Below are positions 5,597 through 28,045 of a stretch of DNA of 28,781 nt, piece by piece. The DNA is from an uncultured Candidatus Saccharibacteria bacterium (GTDB lineage Bacteria; Patescibacteriota; Minisyncoccia; Phycocordibacterales; UBA5272): contig CAYVOJ010000002.1 of assembly GCA_964453485.1 (NCBI GenBank), positions 1 through 28,781 of the forward strand, in the 5' to 3' direction. The notes beneath the pieces were generated by a model, which was not told the origin of the DNA, ran no database searches, and saw nothing but the letters and a program-made list of their open reading frames with translations. Positions within the stretch are counted from its first letter, which is position 1. Each line of letters starts with the position of its first letter. The position numbers and the translations under genes are program-made.

Positions 5597-5670
5597 GCTT
5601 TCCAAAAGTCATGGACTTTTAGTTGTATTGAGTTTTGTTTTCCCTCATTGCACCCTACTCACTACACCCT

Positions 5671-6105
5671 ATGTTAATTGGCCAATACAAACACGACCTC
5701 GATCCAAAGAAACGACTGACGCTACCTTCAAAGTGGCGTACGGACTTGGGGAAGAAAGTGGTTGTAACCAACGGACTAGATAGTTCTCTTTTTGTTTTTC
5801 CAGTTAAAGAGTGGGAGAAGGTTGCTGAAAAGTTATCACAAACTGGTTTTGGAAACAAAGATACTCGAGATTTTAATCGTTTTATCTTAGGGAATGCTTT
5901 CGAAACAGATGTTGATGCAGCAGGGCGTATCGTTATTCCAGACACTCTTAAAACATTTGCTAAGCTTTCGACAAAAGTCGTTATCGCGGGTATGCACTCA
6001 CGTGTAGAAATCTGGGACGAAGATGCATGGAATGCATTTACGACAAAAGTTAGTGGCGAAGCAGATGTTCTCGCAGGAAAACTAAGTGAATTAGGAATTC
6101 TTTAG
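5671..6105 (+). CDS. mraZ: Transcriptional regulator MraZ
   Basis: MLIGQYKHDLDPKKRLTLP, DAAGRIVIP, GMHSRVEIWD. Start set at ATG 5671 by family N-terminus (ORF track starts at 5635). Confidence 0.95.
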   Translation: MLIGQYKHDLDPKKRLTLPSKWRTDLGKKVVVTNGLDSSLFVFPVKEWEKVAEKLSQTGFGNKDTRDFNRFILGNAFETDVDAAGRIVIPDTLKTFAKLSTKVVIAGMHSRVEIWDEDAWNAFTTKVSGEADVLAGKLSELGIL

Positions 6106-6156
6106 TGTGAAACATGCTTTTATTTTTAAAAATTTCAAATTAAAAATTATATAAGT

Positions 6157-7050
6157 ATGTCTCACATTCCAGTACTTTTACATGAATCTATAGAAGGCTT
6201 GAACCTGAAGAAGGGTGGCATCTATGTAGACTGCACCACAAATCGTGGAGGGCATTCTTCTCTCATAGCTAAAGCTATTGGCAAGACCGGTACACTTGTG
6301 TGTATTGATTTAGACCAAGAAGCGCTTGCTCAAGCAGAAAAGAAATTACGAGCACCGAAGACTGCTCCAACTCTCTACTTTGTTAATTCAAACTTTCGTC
6401 GTCTCGGAGATATTCTAAAAGAACTAGATATTCAAAAAGTTGATGGAGTTCTCGCAGACCTCGGTCTTTCTTCAGAAGAGCTTGATGAGTCAGGTCGTGG
6501 ATTTTCTTTTCGCTTTGACGAGCCGCTTCAAATGACATTTGCTGCGAAGCCAGATGATACCCAAACTACAGCTCACGATATTGTGAACTATTGGAGTGAA
6601 TCTACAATCGCAGATATTCTCTTTGGTTTCTCAGATGAAACATATGCACGCAGAATTGCGAGACGCATTGTAGAAAAGAGAGAGCAAGAAGAGATTAAGA
6701 CCACTCATCAACTTGTCGACATTATCGCTAGTGCTGTTCCGGCGCTCTACCGTCACCGCAAAACTCACTTTGCGACAAAAACATTTCAAGCACTGCGCAT
6801 GGCAGTAAACGACGAATTAGGAAGTATTAATGATTTGATTGAAACACTTCCAAACGTTCTCGTCACAGATGGACGAGCATGTATTATCACCTTCCATAGT
6901 ACGGAAGACCGTATCGTTAAACAGGGTCTCCGGGCACACAGTGAAACATTACGAGCAATTACTAAAAAAGCAATACTTCCAACCAAAGAAGAGGCAGAAA
7001 TAAATCCACGAGCACGCAGCGCACAACTAAGAATCGTAGAAAGAGTATGA
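6157..7050 (+). CDS. rsmH: 16S rRNA m4C1402 methyltransferase RsmH
   Basis: DCTTNRGGHS, DLGLSS, RGFSF, FQALRMAVNDEL, ITFHSTEDRIVK, NPRARSAQLR. Follows mraZ. Confidence 0.96.
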   Translation: MSHIPVLLHESIEGLNLKKGGIYVDCTTNRGGHSSLIAKAIGKTGTLVCIDLDQEALAQAEKKLRAPKTAPTLYFVNSNFRRLGDILKELDIQKVDGVLADLGLSSEELDESGRGFSFRFDEPLQMTFAAKPDDTQTTAHDIVNYWSESTIADILFGFSDETYARRIARRIVEKREQEEIKTTHQLVDIIASAVPALYRHRKTHFATKTFQALRMAVNDELGSINDLIETLPNVLVTDGRACIITFHSTEDRIVKQGLRAHSETLRAITKKAILPTKEEAEINPRARSAQLRIVERV

Positions 7051-7364
7051 CACAACACACACACTACCAATTTACATATACAAAAATCGTTCACACTATG
7101 CTTGCGACACTTGCCGCACTTGCTGTTGTGTATTGTGTTGTCTTACTCTCCCTTGTGTTTTCAGTTATTGAGCGAAAGCAAAATATGCTAGCTTCAAAGG
7201 ATCTCTCGTCTCAGTTAAGTGCACTTGAGACGCAGTATGCAAACGAAATCGCTCAGATAGATGACTCTGTTCTTCGTAAGCATAATTTTACTCGTATTGA
7301 TAATGCAACGTTTGCTGTCCGTAAAGATCCTATCGCTAGTTTTTCAGTTTTATACACACGATAA
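7047..7364 (+). CDS. FtsL-like cell division protein
   Basis: Single TM followed by a heptad coiled-coil, between rsmH and ftsI. The call is mainly positional. Confidence 0.6.
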   Translation: MTQHTHYQFTYTKIVHTMLATLAALAVVYCVVLLSLVFSVIERKQNMLASKDLSSQLSALETQYANEIAQIDDSVLRKHNFTRIDNATFAVRKDPIASFSVLYTR

Positions 7365-7370
7365 CGGGCT

Positions 7371-9116
7371 ATGGTTTATGAACGTGACACGACACCTCCT
7401 TCGCACATAGAGCGGTCGCAATACCGTATTCGTATTATTGTGTATGTTGCAGCTATTGTAGCGGTATGTATTTTGGGGCGAGTTATGTACCTACAGTCGT
7501 TTAAGCACGCATACTATACGTCGCTCGCAGAAAAGCAGTATGTAAGCACCACTCAGACAGTTTTTGATAGAGGGAGCGTTCTCTTGTCTCATCGCCATGG
7601 GGACTTGGTGCCACTTGCAGAGCTTGCAACAAAGTATCGTATAGCAATTGATCCCACGGTACTAACAAAGCCAGAGGAGGTATATGCAATACTTTCAACA
7701 TATATTCCTCTCACAAAAGAAGAGTTCTTAGCAAAAGCAAATAAGAAGCAGGATCCGTATGAAGAAATCGCAAAAGATATTCCGGAAGACGTTGTATCAC
7801 TTCTAAAAGCTAAACGAATTAAAGGTCTGAGTTTTGTAAAAGATAGTAAGCGCTCATATCCACAAGACGATATTGGTGCTAAAGTTATTGGCTTTGTTGG
7901 TAATGATGGGAATCGTGTTCGTGGGCAGTATGGTATTGAGCGGTACTATGATGATATTTTAAGTCGTGACGGTGTCGGACACAGCGTAAACTTCTTTGCC
8001 GAGTTATTTACTGATATACAGAAAACAATTATCGCAAAACAGCAGGAAGAAGGAGGTGATATTGTTCTTACGTTAGATGCAGAAGTACAACGGGCACTGC
8101 ATACAACACTTACTGAAACAAGAAAAGAGTGGAATTCTGAAACGGTTGGTGGAATTGTTATGGATCCAAGCACGGGTGCCATTATCGCCATGGACGCTCT
8201 TCCATCCTTTAACCCAAATGCTTTTGCACAAGTAGTAGATCAGAGATTTTTCGGAAATCAGTTAGTGTCTGGTGTGTATGAAATGGGAAGTATTATAAAA
8301 CCAATTACGATGGCATCTGCGCTTGACGCTGGGGTAGTCAATGAAGCTACAACTTATAATGACGCAGGATTTCGCGATTTGAACGGTTACAAAGTGCGCA
8401 ACTTCGATGGTAAGGCTCGTGGTCCGAATACTCCTATTCAGACAATTCTTGATAAATCATTAAACGTAGGTATAGTTTTTTTAGTTGAACAGCTTGGTAC
8501 AAAACAATTTCAAGAGTATTTTAAAAAATTTGGTATCGGTAGTGATACGGGAGTAGATTTGCCATACGAGGCAAGCGGTCTTACAAAAAACTTAGATAGC
8601 CCTGTTTTTGTCGACAGTGCAACCGCTGGGTTCGGACAAGGTATAGCGATTACCCCGATACAAACAATACGTGCGCTCGCAGCACTTGGTAATGGTGGCA
8701 CGCTCGTTAATCCACATCTTATTGATACTATTATTTATAAAAATGGTGAATCTAAAAAGGTGGTGCCTGATGAGGGTGTTCGGGTTATCTCACCAGAATC
8801 GAGTGAACAGATTTCACGAATGCTTGTCCATGTGGTAGATACAGCGCTCGCTAATGGAACACGAAAAATGGATCACTATAGTGTTGCTGCAAAGACGGGG
8901 ACTGCACAGATACCAAAACCAGGAGGAGGATACTATGATGATAGGTATCTACACTCCTTCTTCGGCTATTTCCCTGCATATGAACCAAAGTATATTATTT
9001 TCCTCTTCCAAACATATCCAAAAGGTGCTGAGTATGCTTCAGCGACACTTACCGACCCATTCTATAAGATAGTAAAGTTTTTGATTTCGTATTACGAAGT
9101 GCCACCAGACAGATAG
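7371..9116 (+). CDS. ftsI: Penicillin-binding protein 3 / FtsI-like class B transpeptidase
   Basis: N-terminal TM, motifs SIIK, SLN and KTG, YEMGS, dcw cluster position. Confidence 0.88.
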   Translation: MVYERDTTPPSHIERSQYRIRIIVYVAAIVAVCILGRVMYLQSFKHAYYTSLAEKQYVSTTQTVFDRGSVLLSHRHGDLVPLAELATKYRIAIDPTVLTKPEEVYAILSTYIPLTKEEFLAKANKKQDPYEEIAKDIPEDVVSLLKAKRIKGLSFVKDSKRSYPQDDIGAKVIGFVGNDGNRVRGQYGIERYYDDILSRDGVGHSVNFFAELFTDIQKTIIAKQQEEGGDIVLTLDAEVQRALHTTLTETRKEWNSETVGGIVMDPSTGAIIAMDALPSFNPNAFAQVVDQRFFGNQLVSGVYEMGSIIKPITMASALDAGVVNEATTYNDAGFRDLNGYKVRNFDGKARGPNTPIQTILDKSLNVGIVFLVEQLGTKQFQEYFKKFGIGSDTGVDLPYEASGLTKNLDSPVFVDSATAGFGQGIAITPIQTIRALAALGNGGTLVNPHLIDTIIYKNGESKKVVPDEGVRVISPESSEQISRMLVHVVDTALANGTRKMDHYSVAAKTGTAQIPKPGGGYYDDRYLHSFFGYFPAYEPKYIIFLFQTYPKGAEYASATLTDPFYKIVKFLISYYEVPPDR

Positions 9117-9172
9117 AGATGGTGCGTACAGAATTGGTACGCCTGAGATACGATATACTATATACTGCCTCT

Positions 9173-10582
9173 ATGCCTATTAATCCTCTACGTGTACGAA
9201 ATATATCAGCGAAAGACTACAAAGGTGGTACGGTGATATATCGTATGTGTCGTGATCTTCGTGCACATGATAATGACGCGCTTCTTTTTGCACAGAGTCT
9301 CGCTACGAGTAAGGGTGCAGAATTGATTGTGGTGTATACGATATGGAATTATGAATGGGTCGGGGCAACACGCAGATTCTATGACTGGGTTATTCCAAGT
9401 CTTATTGAAGTTGAAAAGGAACTACGAGCACATAATATTCCACTCGTGATTGCCTTTGACCAAGATTTTCCGAAACACACCACGAAAACATCGTGCGGTG
9501 CTGTGGTTATTGATCAGCTACCACTTCATTTTATGAATACGTGGAAGAAAGAGTTTCTTGCTCATGCAAATAACACGGCTCTTTATGAAGTCGATGCACA
9601 CAATGTGATCCCGGTCTGGGAGCTTTCTCAAAAACAAGAATTCGCTGCACGAACGATACGAAGTAAAGTGCATGCAAAGATATCTTCTTTCTTGGAAGAC
9701 TATGACAAATTGAAAGTGCATCCTCACAACAAAGAACTTCTTGAAACGTATAGAGCAGTAGACTGGGAACACGTACGGACACAGATTAGGTGTCGAGAAG
9801 ATGTTGCTGGAACAGGTGAGAATAGTCCTGGAGAGCATGCGTCACACAAGGTTTTGAAAGAGTTCTTGGATAAAAAACTTTCAGCGTATGGAGATGCTCG
9901 CAATGATATAAATGGAGATGGTCAGAGTAATCTTTCTCCATATATCTCGCATGGGAATATTTCTCGTAGGAGAATTGTTCTCGAGCTCCTTGCAAAGTCT
10001 CAAATAACAATAGAGAAAGCCTTTGATTCAGTTCAGAATGGATCAAACGGCACAATGGGAAGCACGGCTTCATTTATTGAAGAGTGTGTCGTCAGGTCTG
10101 AGCTGTGTGAGAATTTCTGTTTTTACAACGAGAAGTATGATTCATACGAAGGATTTCCTTTGTGGGCACAAGACACGCTAAAGAAAGCTCTCACTGATAA
10201 ACGCGAGTATGTGTATACATTAGAAGAATTTGAAAAAGCAAAAACGCATGATGATCTTTGGAATGCAGCACAGATGCAGATGGTGAAAACAGGGAAGATG
10301 CAGGGATACATGCGTATGTATTGGGCAAAGAAAATTTTAGAATGGACAAAGTCTCCACAAGAGGCGATGCATATTGCAGTGTACCTCAATGATACCTATG
10401 AGTTAGATGGTCGTGATCCAAATGGGTACGTAGGATGTGCGTGGAGCATAGGCGGTGTACATGATAGGCCATGGTTTGGTCGTTCAATATTTGGCACTAT
10501 TCGCTACATGGCGCAGTCTGGGGTGGAGAAGCGCGGAAAGGTGCACACCTACATAGAGAAATGGCTCGGGCTCTCTGCATGA
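9173..10582 (+). CDS. phr: Class II CPD DNA photolyase
   Basis: RDLRAHDNDALLFA, SNLSPYISHG, GKMQGYMRMYWAKKILEWT, YELDGRDPNGYVG, WSIGGVHDRPW, IFGTIRYM. Start placed at ATG 9173, 6 nt after TATACT (ORF track starts at 9119). Confidence 0.93.
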   Translation: MPINPLRVRNISAKDYKGGTVIYRMCRDLRAHDNDALLFAQSLATSKGAELIVVYTIWNYEWVGATRRFYDWVIPSLIEVEKELRAHNIPLVIAFDQDFPKHTTKTSCGAVVIDQLPLHFMNTWKKEFLAHANNTALYEVDAHNVIPVWELSQKQEFAARTIRSKVHAKISSFLEDYDKLKVHPHNKELLETYRAVDWEHVRTQIRCREDVAGTGENSPGEHASHKVLKEFLDKKLSAYGDARNDINGDGQSNLSPYISHGNISRRRIVLELLAKSQITIEKAFDSVQNGSNGTMGSTASFIEECVVRSELCENFCFYNEKYDSYEGFPLWAQDTLKKALTDKREYVYTLEEFEKAKTHDDLWNAAQMQMVKTGKMQGYMRMYWAKKILEWTKSPQEAMHIAVYLNDTYELDGRDPNGYVGCAWSIGGVHDRPWFGRSIFGTIRYMAQSGVEKRGKVHTYIEKWLGLSA

Positions 10583-10609
10583 AGAAGATAACCATGCTAG
10601 TATGTATTC

Positions 10610-11440: not shown

Positions 11441-11487
11441 CCTCCGTGTTACGATGATCTTTTAGTTCTGGTATACTCTCACTATCT

Positions 11488-12144: not shown

Positions 12145-12186
12145 ACAATAAACAAAGTTAATTTAATAGTTACAATAACAAACAAC

Positions 12187-12518: not shown

Positions 12519-13298
12519 TTATATCAAGCAGACAAACTTGGTCCTGCACTCGTAGCCACGAGCATGTTCAAAAGTTAACTTTGGAGAATTGTCACCTGAC
12601 CAATGTGCTACGTTAGGGTGATTTGCCCTATCAGTGCCAAAGAGTACGAAATGATGTTTTATTAATCGCTTGACACACTCATGTTTGTAAAACAAATAAG
12701 CAAGACCTTCTGGCGAAGATATAAGATCGTCAACTCGGCTCTTGAGAATGTCAAAGCCGCTTTCATACGTCGGATTGAATTTTGTCTCCAATATTACAAC
12801 TACTCCATCTTCTTTATTTTTTATTGCTTGTAACTCTGCCCACAAGCGGTCAGCGAGCTTTCTCGTATCTCCCTCCTTTTCGGGTAGCTTTTTCGGAGCA
12901 ATGTCTCCTATCTCACCGTGATGTTTTAGGAACATCTCAGCATACAATTCGTCATAACTTCTTGGCAGAAAAACAAGAAATTGTTGTATAGTGTATGCCT
13001 CACATATTTCCAGGCCTCCTGTGTAAAGAGAACAGGTAACAGTACTTTGACCATCTTTCAGAATGGGAGGAACAACACCTAGAAGTCTTTCTTCTTCTTC
13101 AATTTGCTGTCTGGTTTGTGCTTGTCGGCTTTTATATAGTTCTCTCAATTTTCTGTAGAAATCTATACATTCTGAAAAGTGGTTTTGATGTAATCCGTGC
13201 TCATCTGCCAAAAAGAAGCGACGATTTTTCATCAAATCAAGTATGATTTGGTTAATCCTCTTGATTTGGGTGGGGGTAAGATTGACTAAGGTACTCAT
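12519..13298 (-). CDS. Orphan hypothetical protein (259 aa)
   Basis: Long ORF with no competing + strand gene, preceded by ctgaaaggaaaatcgc and a sigma70-type promoter. No recognisable motif. Confidence 0.75.
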   Translation of the reverse strand: MSTLVNLTPTQIKRINQIILDLMKNRRFFLADEHGLHQNHFSECIDFYRKLRELYKSRQAQTRQQIEEEERLLGVVPPILKDGQSTVTCSLYTGGLEICEAYTIQQFLVFLPRSYDELYAEMFLKHHGEIGDIAPKKLPEKEGDTRKLADRLWAELQAIKNKEDGVVVILETKFNPTYESGFDILKSRVDDLISSPEGLAYLFYKHECVKRLIKHHFVLFGTDRANHPNVAHWSGDNSPKLTFEHARGYECRTKFVCLI

Positions 13299-13396: not shown

Positions 13397-13500
13397 AAAA
13401 TGAAACCGGAAAAGATACCCTTTTAATTGAACTATGTGAAGGATAAAAACAATTATGAGAAAATGTGTTAGAATGGTAAGTATTATTTATTTTTTGTATT

Positions 13501-13535
13501 TGCTATCAGCTACAGACTACTAGCTAATAGCTATC
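13501..13535 (+). repeat. Degenerate heptamer array (CTA every 7 nt, 5 units)
   Basis: tgctatc agctaca gactact agctaat agctatc, ending 7 nt before the ychF ATG. Confidence 0.7.
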
Positions 13536-13542
13536 TACGTTT

Positions 13543-14640
13543 ATGTCTCTCTCTATCGGAATCGTCGGCCTCCCAAACGTTGGTAAATCAACGCTCTTTA
13601 ATGCGCTTACGAAAAAACAGGTGCCAGCGGATAACTATCCATTTTGTACGATTGATCCGTCGGTTGGTACGGTGCCTGTGCCAGATGCACGTCTCGCACA
13701 GCTTGCAGCAATATCTGAATCAAAGAAAATTTTGCCAGCAGTTGTTGAATTCGTTGATATTGCAGGACTCGTGAAAGGTGCGGCAGAAGGTCAGGGGCTC
13801 GGGAATCAATTTCTCTCACATATTCGTGAGACAGATGCCATCGCTGAAGTGGTGCGTATCTACGAAAACGGAGATCTCATTCACGTAGAAGGAACGGTAG
13901 ATCCACTTCGTGACATTGAAATCATTAATATGGAGCTTATCTTAGCTGATATGGCTACTGTAGATAAACGCATTCAAACAATTGGTCGTGACGTGAAGCG
14001 TGGTGATAAAGATGCTATTAAGTTACAAGGATGTCTTGAGGTTCTTCAGAAAGCATTCGCCGAAGAAAAGCTTGCCAACTCTGTTTCTTTTGGTGAAGAA
14101 GAAATGAAACTTGTACGCGATCTTCACCTCATTACCATGAAGCCATTTCTCTATGTGCTCAATAAGCAGTCAGGTGGAAAGAACTTGGATGAAATGAAGG
14201 ATGAGCGTTTTCAAAAATTGCTAGCATATTTTACTGCGAACAAATTCCACTATGTGGTTGTTGATGCAAAGATTGAAGATGAGCTAAAAGACTTTGAGGG
14301 TGCGGAACAACAAGAAATGCGAGATGAACTGGGTGCTCACGATAGCGGGGTAGATGGTCTCATTAAAGCTGGATATGATTTGCTTGGTCTTGAGACATAT
14401 CTCACAACAGGACCAGAAGAAACACGCGCATGGACTATTAAGAAAGGCTCTACAGCGCCACGTGCAGCAGCGGCTATTCACTCTGACTTTGAAACGAAGT
14501 TTATTCGCGCTGAAGTTGTGGCGTGCGCAGACCTCGTGACATGTGGAAGTTTCGCGGAAGCAAAATCGCAAGGGAAACTGCGAACAGAAGGAAAAGATTA
14601 CATTGTGAGAGATGGAGATGTGATTGAGTTTAAAATTTAA
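13543..14640 (+). CDS. ychF: Ribosome-binding ATPase YchF (Obg family)
   Basis: GIVGLPNVGKSTLFNALT, NYPFCTIDP, FVDIAGLVKGA, GLGNQFLSHIRE, TGS domain ending YIVRDGDVIEFK. Confidence 0.97.
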   Translation: MSLSIGIVGLPNVGKSTLFNALTKKQVPADNYPFCTIDPSVGTVPVPDARLAQLAAISESKKILPAVVEFVDIAGLVKGAAEGQGLGNQFLSHIRETDAIAEVVRIYENGDLIHVEGTVDPLRDIEIINMELILADMATVDKRIQTIGRDVKRGDKDAIKLQGCLEVLQKAFAEEKLANSVSFGEEEMKLVRDLHLITMKPFLYVLNKQSGGKNLDEMKDERFQKLLAYFTANKFHYVVVDAKIEDELKDFEGAEQQEMRDELGAHDSGVDGLIKAGYDLLGLETYLTTGPEETRAWTIKKGSTAPRAAAAIHSDFETKFIRAEVVACADLVTCGSFAEAKSQGKLRTEGKDYIVRDGDVIEFKI

Positions 14641-15357: not shown

Positions 15358-16133
15358 CAACTATTAAAAATAACATCCTTACGTTTGTAAAAAATAACGA
15401 CATACGCATGATCCCTCGTTGGAAGGTAGTGCTATTCTCTTTGCTTGGAGTATGTGGACTTATCTTTACGTTTGGGTTGCTGGTATTTTTCGGCAGCTTG
15501 ATACTCTTTGTTCTTTCACGCTATGGACTTATCTATATGCCGCTGTTTGGTTTTGATGCAGTACTCGCGAATCTACGCGCTATTCCAGTTGTGCTCTTTC
15601 TTGTTACTATTGTTCTCCTTATGCTCGTTGAGGTTCTTGTCCGTCGATATGAATTTACATTACGCACCCCAATCTTGACGACACTTCTTGGGGTTACTAC
15701 AGTAGCACTTCTCGTAAGTTATCTTATTTCTCTGACACCAGTACATCAGGAGTTGCATATATATGCAAAAGCACGAGGTCTCGACTTTATGGCAGAGCAG
15801 TATGCCCGACCAATCCCATTTGATAAAATGCCAGATCTCTCTGTTGTACGAGGTGAGGTGACAGAAGTCTTTGAAAAAAGATTTACCGTACAATCATTTG
15901 ATGATGCCACAACAAGCGTGGTTCTTTCTAGAGAAGAAGGTGCTCCAATGCTCCTGGTGCCAGAAGTCGGAGAGGATGTTATTGTTTTTGGAAAATCACA
16001 TAATGGCTATTTCGAAGCAAAACGTATACGCTCATCGCCACACGTGCCTTTTGAAAAACGCTTTGAACACAAGCGTCCACCAGAACATATAATGAAACGT
16101 GAAATAAAAAATGAAACAGATCGTACTAGATAG
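15354..16133 (+). CDS. Multi-pass membrane protein, candidate anti-sigma factor
   Basis: ATGA overlap with the sigma gene, several TM segments, and a C-terminal soluble beta-rich region (VRGEVTEV...FTVQS...GEDVIVFG). Confidence 0.6.
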   Translation: MTTIKNNILTFVKNNDIRMIPRWKVVLFSLLGVCGLIFTFGLLVFFGSLILFVLSRYGLIYMPLFGFDAVLANLRAIPVVLFLVTIVLLMLVEVLVRRYEFTLRTPILTTLLGVTTVALLVSYLISLTPVHQELHIYAKARGLDFMAEQYARPIPFDKMPDLSVVRGEVTEVFEKRFTVQSFDDATTSVVLSREEGAPMLLVPEVGEDVIVFGKSHNGYFEAKRIRSSPHVPFEKRFEHKRPPEHIMKREIKNETDRTR

Positions 16134-17221: not shown

Positions 17222-17250
17222 GCGCATCTACGGATGCGCTTTTGTTTTTT
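17222..17250 (+). terminator. Intrinsic terminator
   Basis: gcgcatc-tacg-gatgcgc plus ttttgtttttt. Confidence 0.8.
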
Positions 17251-17300
17251 CTAAAATCTACCACCTAGAATCTAGCGTCTCTCTCTGGTATAATCAAAAA

Positions 17301-19202
17301 ATGTCATCAAACCAAGAGATAACTTTGAGCGAGATTCGCTCAAAATTTTTAGAGTATATGAAAGAGAGAGGGCACGCTATTGTGCCTTCGGCTTCTCTTG
17401 TACCCGAGAATGACCCTACGACCCTTTTCACAGGGTCTGGAATGCAACCCATGGTGCCGTATCTTCTTGGACAACCTCATCCTCTCGGGAAGCGCATCGC
17501 AGACTCTCAGAAATCATTTCGTTCACAGGACATTGAGGAGGTGGGTGATAACCGCCATACAACATTTTTTGAGATGCTTGGGAATTGGTCATTTGGTGAC
17601 TACTTCAAGGAAGAGGAGATTACATGGATGTGGACATTTCTGATCGACGAACTCAAACTCGACCCGAAGAATTTTTATGTAACGTGTTTTGCTGGTAACG
17701 ACTCTCTCGGAGTGCCGCGTGACACAATCTCTGCAGAATTATGGAAGAAGCTGTTTGCAGCAAAAGGAATTGAAGCAGGAATAAGTGAAAATCCAGAAGC
17801 GGGCATGAAAGCTGGTGAGAAGATTTTCTACTATTCAGAAAAGAAAAACTGGTGGTCTCGTAGTGGTGTGCCGGCTAATATGCCTGAAGGTGAGCCAGGT
17901 GGACCAGACTCTGAAATGTTTTATGACTTTGATCCGACTCTAGAAAAGAAAATACACGAAACAAGTGCGTGGAAGAACGAACCGTGTCACGTGAACTGTG
18001 ATTGTGGACGCTTCCTAGAAATTGGAAACAACGTATTCATGCAGTACAAAAAGACAGCAAGTGGCTTCGAGGAGCTACCACAGATGAACGTAGACCATGG
18101 ATCAGGTCTTGAGCGCTATGCTGCTGCGTTACAAAATGATCCAGATATTTTTAATATTGATGTCTTTAATGAGCCAAAGAAAACTATTGAGACCCTCTCA
18201 GGGAAGAAATATGGTGAGTCAGAAGCTGTTGTATATGCTTACCGCGTAGTACTTGACCACCTTCGTTCTGCAACATTTCTCATTAGCGACGGTGTGGTTC
18301 CCGGGAATAAAGATCAGATGTATTTTGTACGTCGTCTTGTTCGTCGCGCAGTGAGATTTGCTCGTAATCTCGGAGTGAACGAGAACTTTACGAAGACTGT
18401 AGGGCTTTCATTCATTGAAACGTATAAAGACGAGTATAAAAATCTCGAAGAGAAGAAAGATTTTATTGTAGGAGAGCTCGATAAAGAAGAAAGTAAGTTC
18501 CGAAAGACGCTCGAGAATGGTATTAAGGAGTTCGATAAGATCGCATCAAAAGATATTTCTGGTGTCGACGCCTTTAATCTTCTTCAGTCATTCGGTTTTC
18601 CAATCGAACTAACAGAAGAGCTTGCCAATGAGCGAGGTATCGCTGTTGATCGTGTATCTTTTGATGAAGAAAAGAAGAAACACTCAGAAGAATCTCGTAC
18701 TGCATCTGCTGGAAAGTTTAAAGGAGGCCTCGGCGGTGACGGAGAGATGGAAACAAAGTACCATACAGCGACGCATATGCTTCATCAGGTGCTTCGAGAA
18801 GTACTCGGTGAGACTGTTGAACAGAAAGGGTCAAACATCACTCCTGAGCGACTACGCTTCGACTTTTCATTTGAACGAAAGATGACTGATGAAGAAAAGA
18901 AACAAGTGGAAGATATTATCAATGCACGTATCAAAGAAAATCTTCCTGTGATTCGTGAAGAAGTGTCGATGGAAGAGGCACGTGCACGTGGGGCTATCGG
19001 ACTCTTCGGTGATAAGTATGGCGATGTGGTGAGTATTTATCGAATCGGTGAAGGAAAGAATCGAGGGGACAAAGATCTTTTCTCCATGGAGTTCTGTGGC
19101 GGCCCTCATGTCTCATCAACAGGTGAACTAGGAGTATTCAAAATTCAAAAGGAAGAAGCGGTATCAGCTGGGGTGCGCCGTATTAAAGCAGTACTTGAGT
19201 AA
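17301..19202 (+). CDS. alaS: Alanine--tRNA ligase, short form without C-Ala
   Basis: DPTTLFTGSGMQP, RHTTFFEMLGNWSFGDYFK, editing motifs HTATH and CGGPH, ends GVRRIKAVLE. Start at ATG 17301, 6 nt after TGgTATAAT (ORF track starts at 17220). Confidence 0.95.
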   Translation: MSSNQEITLSEIRSKFLEYMKERGHAIVPSASLVPENDPTTLFTGSGMQPMVPYLLGQPHPLGKRIADSQKSFRSQDIEEVGDNRHTTFFEMLGNWSFGDYFKEEEITWMWTFLIDELKLDPKNFYVTCFAGNDSLGVPRDTISAELWKKLFAAKGIEAGISENPEAGMKAGEKIFYYSEKKNWWSRSGVPANMPEGEPGGPDSEMFYDFDPTLEKKIHETSAWKNEPCHVNCDCGRFLEIGNNVFMQYKKTASGFEELPQMNVDHGSGLERYAAALQNDPDIFNIDVFNEPKKTIETLSGKKYGESEAVVYAYRVVLDHLRSATFLISDGVVPGNKDQMYFVRRLVRRAVRFARNLGVNENFTKTVGLSFIETYKDEYKNLEEKKDFIVGELDKEESKFRKTLENGIKEFDKIASKDISGVDAFNLLQSFGFPIELTEELANERGIAVDRVSFDEEKKKHSEESRTASAGKFKGGLGGDGEMETKYHTATHMLHQVLREVLGETVEQKGSNITPERLRFDFSFERKMTDEEKKQVEDIINARIKENLPVIREEVSMEEARARGAIGLFGDKYGDVVSIYRIGEGKNRGDKDLFSMEFCGGPHVSSTGELGVFKIQKEEAVSAGVRRIKAVLE

Positions 19203-21077: not shown

Positions 21078-21091
21078 CAACCCCTAAACCT

Positions 21092-21310: not shown

Positions 21311-21333
21311 AGTCGCCAATCTGCCCATAAGAT

Positions 21334-21362: not shown

Positions 21363-21378
21363 TCTACCCACATTTCTC

Positions 21379-21492
21379 ATGAAAGTAAGATCATCAGTTA
21401 AGAAGATGTGCGCGAAATGCCAAATGATAAAACGTGGTGGTGTGCTTCGCGTTATTTGCGAAACCCCAAAGCATAAGCAGGCTCAGGGCTAA
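21379..21492 (+). CDS. rpmJ: 50S ribosomal protein bL36 (not in the ORF track)
   Basis: Hand translation [37 protein letters not shown], with zinc-ribbon C-x2-C...C...H. Confidence 0.97.
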
Positions 21493-21540
21493 GCGTATCA
21501 ATAACTGAATTATCTAAACTCTAATTTATCTACCACACTT

Positions 21541-21921: not shown

Positions 21922-21952
21922 AATTTAATTTGAAGCCTAATTACTAAAACCT

Positions 21953-22387
21953 ATGGGAAAGAAACGCATCGTAAAAAAGAATAGTTCAGGTGTAGATAGT
22001 GCTCTTAAGGCGCGCTCACTTGCAAAAGTAGTCAAGAAGAAGATTGTTGAAGGTGTTCTCTATGTGGAATCAACGTACAACAACACTCGTCTTTCACTTT
22101 CTGATAAAAGTGGGAATATTCTTGCTTGGTCTTCTTCAGGCGCTCTTGGATTCAAGGGTGCTAAGAAGGGTACTCCATTTGCCGCTTCAAAAATTGGAGA
22201 ACTTATCGGAGAAAAAGCTCAGCAGGCTGGTATTAAGGAGGTCTCTGTTACGGTAAAAGGGGTTGGCTCAGGACGAGAGTCAGCAATTCGTGCGTTCTCT
22301 GCGTACGGTGTTGAAATTACCTCTATTATCGATAAGACACCTGTACCACACAATGGACCAAAGCCTCGAAAGCCTCGTCATGTGTAA
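21953..22387 (+). CDS. rpsK: 30S ribosomal protein uS11
   Basis: STYNNT, WSSSGALGFKGAKKGTPFAA, GVGSGRESAIR, DKTPVPHNG. Confidence 0.97.
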   Translation: MGKKRIVKKNSSGVDSALKARSLAKVVKKKIVEGVLYVESTYNNTRLSLSDKSGNILAWSSSGALGFKGAKKGTPFAASKIGELIGEKAQQAGIKEVSVTVKGVGSGRESAIRAFSAYGVEITSIIDKTPVPHNGPKPRKPRHV

Positions 22388-22424
22388 TTATTTTGCATCC
22401 ACTACTAACTAGTAACTAACAACT

Positions 22425-23045
22425 ATGTCCAGAATCACCTGTAAAACTTGTCGCCGTCTCGGAGAATCACTTTGTGGTCGTGAGAAGTGTGCCTACAAGA
22501 AACGTCCATATGCACCAGGAAAGCTTGATAGCGAGCGAAAGCATCGATCAAACGTTTCTGAATACGGAGAACAGCTTCGCGCTAAGCAGAAGATGCGTAT
22601 TACGTACGGTCTTATGGAAAAGCAGTTTGCTGCATATGTAAAAGTTGCTATGGCTCGTCATGAAACAGGTGAAGGATCAGCTACGCCAGCACTTAAGCTT
22701 TACCGTGCACTTGAGTCACGTCTGGATAACGTTGTGTATCGTTCAGGATTTGCTCACACACGAGCACTTGCTCGTCAGATGGTGTCACATGGACACATTA
22801 TCGTTAACGGTCGCCGTATTAACGTTGCCTCACACCATGTAAAAGTAGGAGATGTTATCTCTATCCGTGAGGGTAGTGCGTCTGCTAAGGGTTTTGCATC
22901 TCTTAAAGAGAAGCTTGCCAACGTTGCGCCAAGTCATGAGCTTATCGTTGATGGTGCAAAATTGCAGTCAACTGTAAAGGGGGAAGTTCGTGAGATCGAA
23001 CCGGTATTTGATACTCAGAAGGTACTTGAGTACTACTCACGATAA
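22425..23045 (+). CDS. rpsD: 30S ribosomal protein uS4 (zinc-binding type)
   Basis: CKTCRR..CGREKC, SEYGEQLRAKQK, LESRLDNVVYRSGFA, ARQMVSHGH. Confidence 0.97.
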   Translation: MSRITCKTCRRLGESLCGREKCAYKKRPYAPGKLDSERKHRSNVSEYGEQLRAKQKMRITYGLMEKQFAAYVKVAMARHETGEGSATPALKLYRALESRLDNVVYRSGFAHTRALARQMVSHGHIIVNGRRINVASHHVKVGDVISIREGSASAKGFASLKEKLANVAPSHELIVDGAKLQSTVKGEVREIEPVFDTQKVLEYYSR

Positions 23046-23075
23046 AAGACGGAGTGCCTATCCACTACCACATAC

Positions 23076-23104
23076 TTGCGTTTTTTGCAATTTTTTGGTA
23101 GAAT
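23076..23104 (+). promoter_or_regulatory. Internal sigma70 promoter upstream of rpoA
   Basis: TTGCGT-N17-TAGAAT with TG extension in the rpsD-rpoA gap. Confidence 0.6.
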
Positions 23105-23200
23105 AGGGAAACTTTATTTATAAGAAGTGTTCCGGTGTGTCATTGTTTTGCGTAAGGTTGCTATCTATTAACTATACTAAGACCATATATTTCATTGCCT

Positions 23201-24157: not shown

Positions 24158-24158
24158 A

Positions 24159-24187
24159 TTGAATTTAACAAGGTAACGTGTTATAGT
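24159..24187 (+). promoter_or_regulatory. Internal sigma70 promoter of rplQ
   Basis: TTGAAT-N17-TATAGT with TG extension, 8 nt before the ATG. Confidence 0.6.
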
Positions 24188-24195
24188 ACAGAACC

Positions 24196-24549
24196 ATGAA
24201 GCATCATAAGTCATTCAGAAAATTCGGAAGAGAAAAGAACCAGCGCGTTGCGTTTGTTAGATCACTCCTCATTAACCTCATTCGTCACGGACGAATTGAG
24301 ACAACACTTGCTCGAGCAAAAGAGATTCGTCCTTTTGTTGAGAAGCTTGTTACTCTTGCAAAAGAAGACACTGTTGCTCGCCGAAGACTTGTTGCTTCAC
24401 GCCTCATTAACCAGGCTGACGAAACAACAAAGCTTTTTGCAGAATATGCACCTAAGTATAAAGCTGTAGCTGGAGGATACACACGTATCATCAAGCTAAA
24501 TAACCGTATCTCAGACGGTGCTGAAAAAGCTATTATCGAATTTGTATAA
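24196..24549 (+). CDS. rplQ: 50S ribosomal protein bL17
   Basis: MKHHKSFRKFGR, RIETTLARAKEIRPFVEKLVT, GGYTRIIK. Confidence 0.97.
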   Translation: MKHHKSFRKFGREKNQRVAFVRSLLINLIRHGRIETTLARAKEIRPFVEKLVTLAKEDTVARRRLVASRLINQADETTKLFAEYAPKYKAVAGGYTRIIKLNNRISDGAEKAIIEFV

Positions 24550-24559
24550 GACTATTACT

Positions 24560-24913
24560 ATGACATCAACTATTCACACTATCGATGCATCAGGACGCTC
24601 ACTTGGACGTGTAGCTAGTGAAGCAGCAGCCCTCCTTAACGCAAAGGATAGTATTTTCTTCGTTAAGAACCGTGTTGCTGATGTTACGGTAAAGATCATC
24701 AACGCTGCTAAAGTTAAAGTGACCGGTAACAAGATGAAGGAAAGTGTTCACAAGTCATACTCAGGGTATCCTGGAGGTCTCAAAGAAATGCCTCTTTCAT
24801 ATGTTGTTGAAAAGAAAGGATACGGAGAAATCATTAAGCATGCTGTTTCGGGAATGCTTCCAAAGAATAAACTTCAGGATATTCGTTTGAAAAATCTCGT
24901 CATTGAGGAATAA
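24560..24913 (+). CDS. rplM: 50S ribosomal protein uL13 (short form)
   Basis: IDASGRSLGRVASEAA, INAAKVKVTGNK, SGYPGGLK, AVSGMLPKNKL. Start at ATG 24560 (the ORF-track start at 24518 overlaps rplQ). Confidence 0.95.
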   Translation: MTSTIHTIDASGRSLGRVASEAAALLNAKDSIFFVKNRVADVTVKIINAAKVKVTGNKMKESVHKSYSGYPGGLKEMPLSYVVEKKGYGEIIKHAVSGMLPKNKLQDIRLKNLVIEE

Positions 24914-24928
24914 TAATTTACTATACAT

Positions 24929-25336
24929 ATGGAAGCAACTACAAAGAATCGTTATATAGAAGCTGTAGGTCGTCGTAAGACTGCTATTGCACGTGTTCGT
25001 ATTACTCCAGCAGCTAAAGCTTCATTTATCGTGAATGATAAAGATGTTGCTGAATACTTTACAACAAATGATCTTCAGGTTATCGCACAGGAAGCCATTT
25101 CAAAAAGTGAGGCGGGTGAGAAATTCACCGTAACAGTACACGTTGTTGGTGGTGGTATTCATGCTCAGGCTGAGGCTATCCGCCACGGACTCTCTCGTAC
25201 TCTTGTAGAACGAAATGACGATGTAAAGAACACTCTCAAGAAACTTGGATTCCTAAAGCGTGACTCACGTCAGGTGGAACGAAAGAAGTTCGGATTGAAG
25301 AAAGCTCGTAAGGCTCCAACTTGGTCAAAGCGTTAG
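24929..25336 (+). CDS. rpsI: 30S ribosomal protein uS9
   Basis: VGRRKTAIARV, GGGIHAQAEAIRHGLSR, RDSRQVERKKFGLKKARKAPTWSKR. Confidence 0.97.
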   Translation: MEATTKNRYIEAVGRRKTAIARVRITPAAKASFIVNDKDVAEYFTTNDLQVIAQEAISKSEAGEKFTVTVHVVGGGIHAQAEAIRHGLSRTLVERNDDVKNTLKKLGFLKRDSRQVERKKFGLKKARKAPTWSKR

Positions 25337-25340
25337 TACA

Positions 25341-25376
25341 AAAAACAAAAATCGCCTCAGGCGATTTTTTGTTTTC
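25341..25376. terminator. Intrinsic terminator after rpsI
   Basis: aaaacaaaaatcgcc-tca-ggcgattttttgtttt. Confidence 0.85.
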
Positions 25377-25514
25377 TTGACATATTTTTTGTAATTTTGT
25401 ATATAGAATAGGTGTGCGAAAAATGCTATACTGTAGATTACGATAGACATGGCTGTAACGACAGAAATTCCGAAAAGAAAATGATTTTATAGGGCCTTGA
25501 ACACAGAAAAACAC

Positions 25515-26111
25515 ATGAATAATGAAGAAAAGAACCTTAACGAAGAAGTAATACTAGAAGACGCTCATGATATCGACGATGTCTCTTTTGAAGAAACTAA
25601 CGAGGAGGGTGAACTTGACGCAAAAGCAACTATTAAAAAGCTGCGTGAGAAAATTAAGAAGCTTGAGTCTGAAAAGCAAGAATATCTAGACCTCTCACAG
25701 CGAACTCGTGCAGACTATGCGAACTTTAAAAAGGAGGTAGATGAAAATCGTGTAGCTGATAGAAAATTCGCAACGAAACGCTTCATAGAAAGTTTGCTTC
25801 CTGTGCTCGATTCATATGACATGGCACAAGGAAATAAAGAAGCGTGGGAGAAGGTAGATCAGAATTGGCGCGTGGGTATCGAATATATTTTCGGACAGCT
25901 ACGTACAGCTCTTGAAAATGAAGGAGTTGTCCAGTACGGAAAACTCGGTGATGCCTTTGATCCAAATCTTCATGAAAGTATGGAACAGATTGCAGTTTCA
26001 AACGAGAATCAAAATGATACAATTGTACGCATTCTCCAGAACGGTTATAAAATGAATGATACGATATTACGACCAGCCCGTGTACATGTAGGACACTTTG
26101 AAAAGAATTGA
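25515..26111 (+). CDS. grpE: Nucleotide exchange factor GrpE
   Basis: RADYANFKK, LLPVLDSY, FDPNLHESM, ILQNGYKMNDTILRPARV. ATG 25515 preferred over TTG 25497. Confidence 0.95.
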   Translation: MNNEEKNLNEEVILEDAHDIDDVSFEETNEEGELDAKATIKKLREKIKKLESEKQEYLDLSQRTRADYANFKKEVDENRVADRKFATKRFIESLLPVLDSYDMAQGNKEAWEKVDQNWRVGIEYIFGQLRTALENEGVVQYGKLGDAFDPNLHESMEQIAVSNENQNDTIVRILQNGYKMNDTILRPARVHVGHFEKN

Positions 26112-26114
26112 ATG

Positions 26115-26149
26115 TAACTACTTACTAATTACTACTAACTACTTACTAT
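26115..26149 (+). repeat. Degenerate heptamer array (CTA every 7 nt, 5 units)
   Basis: taactac ttactaa ttactac taactac ttactat in the grpE-dnaK spacer. Confidence 0.8.
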
Positions 26150-26158
26150 CTAAAAACT

Positions 26159-28045
26159 ATGGCTAAAATAATTGGAATCGATCTTGGAACAACAAACTCA
26201 GCTGTCGCTATTATCGAAGCTGGACAGCCAAAGATTATCGAAAACCTAGAAGGTAATCGCACGACACCATCTATTGTGTCAGTGAACAAAAATGGTGAAC
26301 GTTCTGTCGGACAAATTGCAAAGCGTCAGGCGGTAACAAATCCAGAAAACACAGTTTATGGCGTGAAGCGCTTTATGGGTCACTCATTTTCTGATAAAGA
26401 AGTTCAGTCAGATATTCCGCGTGTTGCATATAAAATTAAAAGCTCTGATAACGGAGGTGTGCTTATCACACTTGGTGGTAAGGATTCTCGTCCAGAAGAA
26501 ATCTCTGCAATGATTCTTCAGAAAATTAAAGCTGATGTCGAAGCAAAGACGGGGGAGACAGTTACTCAGGCAGTTATTACGGTCCCTGCATACTTTAATG
26601 ACACACAGCGTCAAGCGACAATAGATGCTGGTAAAATCGCAGGCCTTGAAGTAATGCGTATTATTCCAGAACCAACAGCTGCAGCTCTTGCATACGGATT
26701 TAACTCTACAAAGAATGAGAAGATCGCGGTGTATGACTTTGGTGGAGGAACATTTGATATCTCAATTCTCGAAGTGGGCGATGGTGTTGTAGAAGTAAAG
26801 TCAGTAGATGGTGATTCTCATTTAGGAGGTCGTGATATTGATCAGAAATTTGTTCGCTACATTGCGGATGAGTTTAAGAAAGATCAGGGTATCGATGTAA
26901 CCACTGATCCACTTGCACTTCAGCGTCTTGATGAAGCTGCTGAAAAAGCAAAGCATGAGCTTTCTACTCAAATGGAGACTGAAATTAACATTCCATTTAT
27001 CACTTCAGGTGCTGATGGACCGAAGCACTTACTCATCAAAGTTACTCGTGCGAAGCTTGAAGAAATAGCGAAGGAGTTTGTTGATCGCTCTATCGAAATC
27101 ACACAGCGCGCACTCGCTAGTTCTCCATTTAAGAAAGAAGAGATTAATGAAATCATTATGGTGGGAGGTCAGACTCGTATGCCGATGATTGTTGACGCAG
27201 TGAAGGCGCTTTTTGGAAAGGAACCAAACCGTTCGATTAATCCAGATGAAGTAGTAGCACTTGGTGCAGCGGTACAGGCCGGAGTACTTCAAGGAGATGT
27301 GAAGGATGTTCTTCTCTTAGACGTGATCCCGCTTTCTCTCGGTATTGAAACTATGGGAGGAGTTGCAACTAAGCTCGTGGAAAAAAATATGACAATTCCA
27401 ACATCTAAGTCACAGATTTTCTCAACGGCAGCAGATAATCAGACATCTGTTGAAATTCACATCACGCAAGGTGAGCGACCTCTTGCAGCTGATAATAAGT
27501 CACTAGGTAGATTCATTCTCGACGGTATTCCACCAGCACCGCGTGGTATTCCACAAGTGGAAGTTACCTTTGATGTGAACGCAAACGGAATTCTTGAAGT
27601 AAAAGCAAAAGACAAGACTTCAGGAAAAGAGCAGTCTATTCGTATTGAAGCATCAAGTGGACTTTCAGACGAAGATATCAAGCGTATGCAGCAGGATGCT
27701 GAAGCTCATGCTGATGAAGATAAGAAGAAGATGGAATTAATAGAAACAAAGAACATGGCGGACTCACTAGTGCATACTGCAGAGAAATCTCTTAAGGATG
27801 CTGAAGGAAAAATTAGTGATGATATCAAGAAAGAAGTTGCTGAAAAAATCGAACTTCTAAAAACTGCACGTAACGGAGAAGATAAAGATGCCATAACAGC
27901 AGCATCAGATGCTCTTTCGCAATCACTGATGAAAATTGGTGAAGCGATGAAGACCGCTAATGACCAAGCTGGTGCGACAGACAATGGACAACAAGGTGCA
28001 GATGCTGAGTCTGCAGAAAATAAGACAGAAGAGCCAAAAGCTTAG
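26159..28045 (+). CDS. dnaK: Chaperone DnaK (Hsp70)
   Basis: [71 protein letters not shown]. Confidence 0.99.

Follow-up and report, generated by a model that had tools for sequence, protein, structure and literature searches.

The intergenic DNA of the window, by which we mean the whole 28.8-kb stretch analyzed here (41.6% G+C), carries short arrays in which the trinucleotide CTA recurs every 7 nt upstream of genes. These CTA arrays, also called ladders below, have a period of 7 nt and a CTA core, they are intergenic and biased toward the sense strand, they lie close to the ATG in a preferred register, they are unstructured, their genes make no use of a Shine-Dalgarno (SD) motif, and the CTA is inherited together with the base preceding it (nCTA). 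From these features we infer a reading of the arrays at the RNA level, the existence and possible identity of a reader, and an effect on translation. The explanation which we put forward, with a confidence somewhat short of even, is that of a transcribed, sequence-specific leader or spacer element with a 7-nt register supporting SD-independent initiation. It is favored over mere filler because the core has stayed fixed at the 7-nt period for a long time while the spacers have drifted, and because the arrays are sense-biased, lie at the AUG in preferred registers, form no RNA structure, and belong to a lineage which does not use SD.

A mechanical search for at least three CTA at 7-nt spacing identified six ladders on the + strand of the window and none on the - strand. 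Five of them had been listed in an initial annotation made from the sequence alone, and all the CTA coordinates given there were correct: mraZ (5655/5662/5669), rpsK (21937/21944/21951), rpsD (22402/22409/22416/22423), dnaK (26118/26125/26132/26139/26146, then 26150/26157), and ychF (13503/13510/13517/13524/13531). The sixth, upstream of alaS, was missing from that list. All the features described in this paragraph are on the + strand. The mraZ ladder (CCTACTC ACTACAC CCT-ATG, 5655..5673) consists of three CTA in period 7, the last of which overlaps the ATG at 5671, and is identical in strain L378. The rpsK ladder (CCTAATTA CTAAAAC CT-ATG, 21937..21955) lies in the 31-nt rpsM-rpsK spacer and the rpsD ladder (ACTACTA ACTAGTA ACTAACA ACT-ATG, 22402..22427) in the 37-nt rpsK-rpsD spacer. 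The dnaK ladder (26118..26161) fills the 47-nt grpE-dnaK spacer with five A-CTA units, a 4-nt slip (CTAT-CTA) and two more CTA, the final one overlapping the ATG at 26159. The last CTA was said to be part of CT-ATG in these four genes, which is the case within the run itself in mraZ, rpsK, and rpsD, but only after the slip in dnaK. The ychF leader (13490..13545) consists of the flank TTTTTTGTATTT followed by GCTATCA GCTACAG ACTACTA GCTAATA GCTAT and the ATG at 13543; the run stops 12 nt before the ATG, and an extra out-of-phase CTA is present at 13535, 8 nt before the ATG. Since an extended -10 box (TGTTAGAAT, 13466..13474) was read directly in the sequence ~70 nt 5' of this ATG, the ychF ladder is located inside the 5' untranslated region (UTR). 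The alaS-upstream ladder (TCTAAAA TCTACCA CCTAGAA TCTAG, 17251..17275, run 17251-17272) directly follows an intrinsic terminator (GCGCATC-TACG-GATGCGC plus TTTTGTTTTTT, 17222..17250) and precedes the leaderless-type start of the gene (17286..17303), where the extended -10 box TGGTATAAT and a CAAAAA stretch lead up to the ATG (17301). Placed between the terminator hairpin and this box, it is 5' of the promoter and not in the mRNA. From residue 34 onward, the long alaS open reading frame (ORF) is homologous to AlaRS, and the true start is at 17301, the longest ORF being 27 codons too long and crossing both the terminator (17222-17250) and the ladder. The placement of the alaS start varies among the automated gene calls on related contigs.

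As had been claimed, the genes mraZ, rpsK, rpsD, and ychF have neither an SD motif nor an adjacent -10 box in their upstream sequences; dnaK has no SD motif and only TACTAT, 9 nt 5' of the ATG and without TG. The promoter proposed ~70 nt upstream of ychF is indeed present, whereas the one proposed ~100 nt upstream of mraZ was not found in a -35/-10 scan. By direct reading, most of the starts in the window lack an SD motif, and at many of them an extended -10 box (TGnTATAAT-like) is located 6-11 nt 5' of the ATG; this combination of an extended -10 box with no SD motif was read at the starts 739, 2498, 3079, 10610, 11488, 14797, 16187, 17301, and 24196. The -10 box adjoins the ATG in alaS, mrdA, greA, lysS, the thioredoxin-like gene, rplQ, and others, and judging from these upstream sequences the organism appears to be largely leaderless. 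The RpoA protein of the window matches 80 loci with 57-88% identity, in metagenome-assembled genomes labelled Nomurabacteria, Paceibacterota, or Parcubacteria, and the host is therefore a Patescibacteria (candidate phyla radiation, CPR) bacterium. These 80 loci and the window form the clade set, on which the clade-wide counts given below are based (1.38 Mb, both strands, ~20 kb per genome). SD-like 4-mers are present at 11.5% of 851 starts in the close relatives, vs. 8.7% in a control window. The anti-SD motif has been detected in only 48% of Parcubacteria, bS21 is frequently lost, and the bS1 of CPR bacteria has 3-4 S1 domains (PMC9297842). The 16S rRNA gene is absent from all the loci collected, which cover ~20 kb per genome, and Rfam and tRNA scans of the window gave no matches.

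When the intergenic DNA of the window (2.9 kb) was shuffled 2000 times with its dinucleotides preserved, ladders numbered 0.087 on average and at most 2, vs. the six observed, and CTA pairs at lag 7 numbered 1.74 ± 1.3, vs. 22 observed. The other periods from 3 to 14 gave 0-1 ladder each in the window, except for period 14 (the double period), which gave 2. Clade-wide, 78 ladders of period 7 were found and 1-19 of each other period within 3-12. As many as 74 of these 78 are intergenic, although intergenic DNA accounts for only ~14% of the sequence, and the remaining 4 reflect miscalled starts. The CTA-CTA pairs located 5' of genes number 216, 141, and 106 at lags 7, 14, and 21, respectively, over a background of ~35, and no lag-7 CTA signal was detected in the coding DNA of the clade loci. 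CTA ranks first among the 64 trinucleotides in lag-7 chains, with 230 pairs, 94 triples, 47 quadruples, and an extension probability of 0.41; the arrays are 3-6 units long. In the close relatives the density is 0.61 ladders per kb of spacer (31/43 loci), and in the relatives at ~60% RpoA identity it is 0.12 ladders per kb of spacer (5/38 loci). On viral contigs, 5-unit CTA ladders and control CAT ladders were both matched among the matches listed, which is uninformative as regards the specialness of CTA and its use by phages.

The arrays show a register preference relative to the start codon. The offset between the last CTA and the ATG, taken modulo 7, is 1 or 2 in 26 of the 43 sense arrays that are followed by an ATG no more than 45 nt away (2/7 being expected) and in 18 of 31 arrays when each gene family and phase is counted once, although these counts somewhat overstate the evidence since orthologues are not independent. 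At the 700 starts without CTATG, CTA occurrences at -8/-15/-22/-29/-36 sum to 154, vs. 66-90 per other phase. A phase preference of the kind predicted in the initial annotation therefore exists, but the main register is that at -8/-15/-22/-29/-36, and the one it had singled out (-2/-9/-16/-23) is secondary. The 4-nt CTAT-CTA slip re-phases the last unit in dnaK and ychF. The CT-ATG context is not specific to ladders: it is a general one, found at 150 of 846 starts clade-wide (18%), and position -1 is T in 70% of the clade starts.

Comparisons between genomes bore out the statement that CTA stays fixed while the other heptad positions vary, since nCTA is kept at orthologous sites while the spacers drift. 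Among the genomes which have an array at a given gene, the preceding base is gene-specific: A-CTA is found at dnaK in 10/12 genomes, T-CTA at alaS in 5/7, and G-CTA at ychF in 3/3 (array-level chi-square p = 0.003), G-CTA ladders being present 5' of ychF in L020 and L378 as well, and at 4-fold sites these genomes share only ~50% identity. Between some orthologous dnaK leaders the identity is 85-89% (85% to L042), and non-orthologous ladders are 58% identical on average, with a maximum of 78%. All four CTA of the alaS ladder are kept in L038 and in strain L252, where substitutions have occurred only at other positions. On a shorter time scale, exact-protein look-ups with RpsK and GreA yielded 10 strains with 96.4-99.9% nucleotide identity; those with DnaK and MrdA found no strains, and a metagenome scan with GrpE found no near-identical strain, the best match showing 79% identity. 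Among the ten strains, 5.5% of the third codon positions and ~1.5% of the spacer sites are variable. No ladder indel or copy-number change was observed among the strains covering each ladder (10 for rpsK and rpsD, 2 for dnaK, and 1 for alaS), and just two substitutions occurred inside ladders, one at a variable position and one in the out-of-phase CTA at 26150. An assembly artefact was ruled out, as the ladders recur in 10 independent assemblies, and so was recent slippage or phase variation of a slipping microsatellite, as the number of units is constant among strains. The units of one array differ at ~44% of the variable positions; in a hypermutable contingency simple sequence repeat (SSR) they would be near-identical and polymorphic in copy number, and neither of these features was found here.

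Strain L378, the GreA of which is identical and the ychF gene of which is 96% identical to that of the window, has kept the TGnTAGAAT box, the TTTTGTAT flank, and the GCTA units of the ychF leader, the equivalent of the promoter being TGGTAGAAT. It differs in the spacer letters, in the number of CTA (four vs. the six in the window), and in having the CT-ATG register. The 259-aa gene of uncharacterised role at 12519-13298 (-) in the window is absent from L378 (19914-20002), where ychF directly follows a 75-aa ORF; this layout indicates a strain-level insertion, deletion, or exchange upstream of ychF, and the ychF-upstream segment was probably exchanged together with the window-only gene. The extra 7.5 kb available in L378 contains two further sense ladders, one before mreB, 5' of its -10 box, and one before frr. 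In the 900 nt between an aminoacyl-tRNA ligase gene and mreB of L378 (5401-6310), there is neither a gene call on the + strand nor a tRNA, and the matching region of L379 carries a 105-aa minus-strand call.

The leaders of mraZ, rpsK, rpsD, and dnaK are unstructured, as previously surmised: their minimum free energy (MFE) is -1.1 to -4.3 kcal/mol, with z +0.4 to +1.65 vs. shuffles (mraZ, -3.3 kcal/mol and z +1.0; dnaK, -1.4 kcal/mol). The ychF leader forms a weak internal hairpin (z -0.9). At the variable positions of the arrays abutting the ATG, A amounts to 48% and G to 9%, as compared with 35% and 17%, respectively, in the arrays without a downstream ATG. Based on the sequence and the fold prediction, these leaders are therefore single-stranded, G-poor, and located directly 5' of the AUG, as are enhancer leaders of the S1 or cold-shock protein (Csp) type. 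It was also considered whether the arrays might be reading-frame insulators, stopping stray translation into the spacer, which seems most improbable. The frame arithmetic follows directly from the sequence: as each 7-nt unit displaces the frame by one, an array with at least three CTA has TAG in every frame of the opposite strand, and units of the CTAA or CTAG type, which account for 57% of the total, have the same effect on the sense strand. Inverted arrays, with TAG on the mRNA, are found right after stop codons and before terminators, and the TAACTGA repeats discussed below were noted by MacGregor to share this stop-frame property (PMC4679880). Purines are no commoner right after CTA than at the other variable positions, however, the sense arrays, which are the majority, put their guaranteed stops on the non-coding strand, where there is no evident need for them, and A/T-rich spacers already contain many stops.

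In the model which we propose, the ladders form a family of degenerate tandem arrays which is specific to the lineage and has 3-6 copies of the heptanucleotide unit (n)CTA-N3. They would have originated by the tandem duplication of 7-nt units, which is the simplest origin because the units within an array are related. Their main setting would be the transcribed 5' leaders and intercistronic spacers of genes unable to be leaderless. A single-strand RNA binder with a footprint of ~7 nt per module might read CUA once per module, the candidates being the short 3-4-domain bS1, a cold-shock-type protein with an OB fold, or the 30S subunit itself. By keeping the region open, this binder would place the 30S subunit or the 70S ribosome on the next AUG, which would account for the preferred registers between CTA and AUG. 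A 7-nt footprint fits single-strand binders with an OB fold, by analogy with CspB, one molecule of which is reported to bind one heptamer (Sachs 2012 and Morgan 2007, as cited in the literature). The SD-independent recruitment suggested in the initial annotation thus finds support in the absence of SD motifs, the sense bias, the fact that about half of the arrays abut the ATG, and the register; what speaks against it are the arrays upstream of promoters, the inverted arrays, and the dispensability of the ladders at rpsD and rpsK. A stronger version, which strikes us as distinctly unlikely, is that (CUA-N4)n is the working replacement of the SD motif in Parcubacteria lacking the anti-SD: a changed ribosome would read the array in a fixed register with the AUG via an altered 16S 3' tail or via the 3-4-domain bS1, with one OB domain per heptad. 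In a variant of this version, a CU/A-specific nuclease would trim internal cistrons to leaderless 5'-AUG mRNAs.

Several observations, presented here and in the next two paragraphs, weigh against a start element read as RNA, and it is because of the promoter-upstream arrays, the inverted arrays, the dispensability at rpsD and rpsK, the arrays without CTA, and the lack of minus-strand ladders that our confidence in it stays below even. Tandem Repeats Finder (TRF) showed that period-7 tandem arrays dominate the intergenic repeats (113 intergenic vs. 19 in coding sequences; other periods, 30 or fewer intergenic), and CTA is lacking from approximately half of these intergenic arrays (TTGAAAA, ATTAAAA, TAAGGAG, ACTGTTA), so that the 7-nt period itself may be mutational. 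In period-7 arrays collected without bias, the mismatches are spread over all the columns, but this column-variance test is uninformative, as the merged windows included flanks. The dnaK ladder is present in only ~40% of the close relatives, the others having plain A/T-rich leaders. At rpsK and rpsD, for the orthologues of which a check of phase conservation had been proposed, the ladders are missing from most relatives, where the spacers are 5-25 nt long: among the close relatives compared, L001-L045, the rpsD ladder occurs only in the window lineage and L017, the others having a 5-10 nt spacer, and the rpsK ladder is essentially limited to the window lineage, the spacer of the relatives being comparably A/T-rich but ladder-free. 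Thus rpsD and rpsK can do without the ladder, and tight coupling or a simple spacer rich in A and T serves just as well.

These data might be explained without any specific reader. The arrays would then be heptanucleotide SSRs produced by slippage or duplication, which spacers merely tolerate or weakly favor for their lack of structure, their low G content, and the absence of start codons from them. Both the sense bias and the register would be by-products of selection against G and start codons and of growth from CT-ATG. We regard this explanation as doubtful, although it deserves serious consideration. The dominance of period-7 arrays of many kinds, half of them without CTA, is in line with it, as are the sporadic presence of ladders at orthologous sites, the plain A/T-rich leaders at the same sites in relatives, the general nature of the CT-ATG and T-at--1 contexts, and the greater likeness of units within an array (2.26 of 4 positions) than between arrays (1.20 of 4). 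Heptanucleotide repeats are also reported to be the commonest long SSR class in most prokaryotic genomes (Mrazek 2007, as cited in the literature). What tolerated repeats do not explain is why only CTA is preserved, with drift at the four remaining positions, and why the nCTA dialects persist at ~50% synonymous-site identity; nor would they be expected to show no length polymorphism in 10 strains. In addition, the dominant register (-8, -15, ...) is not that of growth from CT-ATG, and composition alone leaves the lead of CTA over other A/T/C trinucleotides unexplained.

The positions and orientations of the arrays in the clade are not uniform. In co-directional spacers, 42 arrays are in the sense and 17 in the antisense orientation. 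The 78 arrays include 31 which abut the ATG (20 nt or less), 10 which are farther from it, several of them only through one broken unit, and 26 without a downstream ATG-ORF. In at least 11, including those of the window alaS and of mreB in L378, a leaderless-type -10 box separates the array from the ATG; these arrays are therefore outside the mRNA, yet the window alaS array is conserved. The restriction to the sense strand seen in the window, which has no antisense ladder, does not extend to the clade: the 17 antisense arrays lie directly 3' of the stop codon with which the preceding gene ends, and in many cases a terminator hairpin comes next. None of the 164 minus-strand genes has a ladder, ~4.5 being expected, and 49 sense and 5 antisense ladders precede the 1798 plus-strand genes, so that the bias could be a DNA-strand, replication-strand, or gene-type effect. 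In the relatives, the basal layout upstream of alaS consists of a terminator, a TTTTGTTTT tail, ~20 nt, a TGTATAAT box, 6-8 nt, and the ATG, the terminator and its tail being conserved. The array is located between terminator and -10 box in the window and L038, and between the TGTATAAT -10 box and the ATG in six orthologues, where it is therefore in the 5' UTR. Arrays tend to start after a T-rich stretch resembling TTTTGTAT, and those preceding promoters often end with an in-phase CTG which is the TG of the extended -10 box.

The arrays might be sites at the DNA level, 5' of transcription starts, for a transcription factor, a nucleoid protein, or a contact with the alpha or sigma subunit of the RNA polymerase; in a leaderless lineage the ATG nearly coincides with the transcription start, and the phase relative to the ATG would be that of the promoter. 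This is unlikely in our opinion, although T-CTA units make tandem -10-like TAnnnT hexamers, arrays directly precede extended -10 boxes, often supplying the TG of TGnTATAAT through the in-phase CTG, rpoA and infA have canonical -35/-10 promoters preceded by other arrays, the alaS ladder located 5' of the promoter is common to the window, L038, and L252, both orientations exist, the TTGAAAA heptad arrays resemble repeated -35 boxes 5' of -10 boxes, and no minus-strand gene has a ladder. The ladders abutting the ATG in the rpsM-rpsK-rpsD and grpE-dnaK spacers, however, have no -10 box usable in the standard geometry, and the array is 3' of the -10 box in six alaS orthologues and in ychF. A 7-bp period would also place successive sites on different faces of the helix, and the 2.5:1 sense bias and the A-rich, G-poor arrays abutting the ATG point to RNA. 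The idea that the ladder itself is a promoter was rejected, as the geometry is unfit in A-, C-, and G-CTA arrays and only T-CTA gives TAnnnT. In the long spacers of L001 (17840-18060), L017 (19530-19760), and L002 (640-790), several different heptad arrays occur in a row, including TAAGGAG (SD-like) directly 3' of the stop codon and ATTAAAA; a TTGAAAA (-35-like) array precedes a TGCTAGTAT or TGCTATACT box there, and a copy of the palindrome GTCATTCCCGCGCAGGCGGGAATC is also present.

Approximately half of the antisense arrays have a downstream sense partner, and six of these inverted/sense pairs fold into long hairpins (z -2.7 to -8.1 vs. shuffles), some of them located between rpsD and rpoA and before infA, just 5' of canonical -35/-10 promoters. 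Pairing of this kind, which would be expected of repetitive extragenic palindromes and bacterial interspersed mosaic elements (REP/BIME), concerns ~9 pairs, with ~50 arrays unpaired and none of the window ladders paired. The paired arrays could be hairpin arms by which terminators are lengthened, operons insulated, or enzymes of the RNase III type provided with a substrate, and the single arrays repeated CU/A cleavage sites at which polycistronic RNA is trimmed to 5'-AUG, making leaderless mRNAs. We consider such a role in RNA structure or processing very unlikely. It is consistent with the hairpins of the six loci and with the location of the pairs between rpsD and rpoA, before infA, and after stop codons, often around a terminator hairpin, and also with leaderless starts being the default, with C-T-A at -2/-1/+1 of many starts, and with the overlap of the last CTA with the ATG in four window ladders. 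It is difficult to reconcile with the ~50 of 78 arrays having no inverted partner, with the unstructured leaders of the window, and with the commonest register being CTA at -8 and not at the ATG, and no nuclease of this kind is known or was identified here. At rpoA (23075-23200), the canonical promoter of the window consists of TTGCGT, a 17-nt spacer, and TAGAAT, and a leader of ~95 nt is kept across relatives (CCACTAMCACATACTTGC...GGGTTAGAAT...ACTTTAYTTATAA), several of which have an inverted/sense CTA hairpin pair just upstream. The arrays of one genome are more alike than those of different genomes. In L001, a near-identical 24-40 nt array (TGTATAAT CTAAAAT CTAATGT CTAAAAT...) is present twice in opposite orientations, at 3604-3640 (+) and 16066-16089 (-); one copy is the alaS leader, an unrelated gene has the second copy in its 3' region, and the transcripts of the two would be complementary.

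Nearly all the window genes are on the + strand. They include mreC, mrdA, greA, lysS, the gene of a Clp-N protein, mraZ-rsmH-ftsL-ftsI, a class II photolyase gene, ychF, an ECF sigma factor gene, a short alaS, infA-rpmJ-rpsM-rpsK-rpsD-rpoA-rplQ-rplM-rpsI, and grpE-dnaK. In the mraZ-rsmH-ftsL-ftsI cluster, the class II (phr2-type) photolyase gene (9119-10582) is inserted right behind ftsI, at the place expected for murE. Two heptad arrays without CTA were found by TRF on the + strand, a TTAAAAA-type array between the clpA-N terminator and the mraZ region (5448..5477) and TTAAAAA TTTCAAA TTAAAAA in the mraZ-rsmH spacer, right before the rsmH start (6126..6149). A perfect palindrome with a 20-bp stem (CCTGAAAATGAGGTTTTACA-TAACCG-TGTAAAACCTCATTTTCAGG, 5479-5524) is also present between the clpA-N terminator (5410-5437) and the mraZ region, and GTGGGAG-type motifs at ~5590 resemble MraZ boxes.

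How start codons are chosen on leadered or internal cistrons without SD pairing is an open question in Bacteroidetes, Cyanobacteria, and especially the Parcubacteria which are reported to lack the anti-SD. The present lineage provides a compact, countable, and conserved candidate signal, of which versions with and without the ladder occur naturally at the same genes in close relatives. Such a signal would improve start-site and gene calling in Patescibacteria, for instance in the case of the alaS ORF over-extended by 27 codons. Even if the arrays are only tolerated repeats, they form the clearest heptamer repeat family with a conserved 3-4 nt core so far, and the unexplained TAACTGA phenomenon would reach a new phylum. 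In the literature that could be searched, nothing was found linking Patescibacteria to leaderless or SD-independent signals of this kind.

As regards the known types of start signal, the ladder genes have no GGAGG-like SD site 5-10 nt upstream, and in mraZ, rpsK, rpsD, and ychF no -10 box of the leaderless type 4-12 nt before the ATG, dnaK having the TG-less TACTAT only. The antiterminator HutP of Bacillus subtilis, a ring protein, reads UAG-N4-UAG-N4-UAG sites in single-stranded RNA, that is, a triplet and a 4-nt spacer giving a 7-nt period with at least three units as in the CTA arrays, and inverted CTA arrays likewise put UAG-N4 repeats on the mRNA just 5' of terminator hairpins. Unlike HutP sites, however, the CTA arrays give CUA on the transcript in 6/6 window ladders and in 42 of the 59 arrays in co-directional spacers, UAG being found only in the 17 inverted arrays; the majority precede start codons and not terminators, and there is no hut operon. 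The arrays bound by TRAP consist of 9-11 (G/U)AG triplets 2-3 nt apart, whereas the period here is 7, the number of units 3-6, and the triplet on the mRNA CUA. SD-independent enhancers include the epsilon sequence of T7 gene 10 (UUAACUUUA), the omega leader of tobacco mosaic virus (TMV), and CA-rich or A/U-rich leaders binding S1. They share with the CTA arrays a G-poor, unstructured, A/U/C-rich leader right before an SD-less AUG, and in the case of epsilon also UAACUAU-type units, the dnaK leader of L002 containing UUAACUUUA exactly. They are not known to have a strict 7-nt register or an invariant CUA, however, and their activity was shown in SD-using organisms.

The heptanucleotide SSRs of prokaryotes and the short tandemly repeated repetitive (STRR) sequences of Cyanobacteria resemble the CTA arrays in their 7-nt period, their non-coding location, their likely origin by tandem duplication, and the presence of several unit families per genome (Mrazek 2007, as cited in the literature). 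Classical SSR/STRR arrays are near-perfect, often long, and variable in length, whereas the CTA arrays are short (3-6 units) and degenerate except for a 3-4 nt core; unlike them, the CTA arrays are also stable among strains, sense-biased, and in register with the ATG. The closest precedent is a set of direct repeats of the heptamer TAACTGA, present in marine Beggiatoaceae and also in some Cyanobacteria and Bacteroidetes (MacGregor 2015, PMC4679880). These occur in 2-6 copies, nearly all intergenic and in forward orientation just 5' of starts lacking a ribosome-binding site (RBS), including starts inside ribosomal-protein operons such as that of the S4 gene, and some form "split" sets with related heptamers; their function is unknown, S1 and Csp having been suggested as readers (PMC4679880). 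The CTA arrays are also tandem 7-nt repeats which are intergenic, forward, and just 5' of RBS-less starts. Arrays 5' of -10 boxes, hairpin-forming inverted pairs, and conservation of the core between orthologues are not described for TAACTGA. The heptamer is fixed there, whereas the units here have three variable positions besides the fixed CTA and gene-specific preceding base; in most TAACTGA sets the last unit stops 1 nt short of the start, whereas the register is different here; and the phylum here is Patescibacteria. TAACTGA itself occurs in these genomes as an occasional single unit, for example in the dnaK leaders of L012 and L031.

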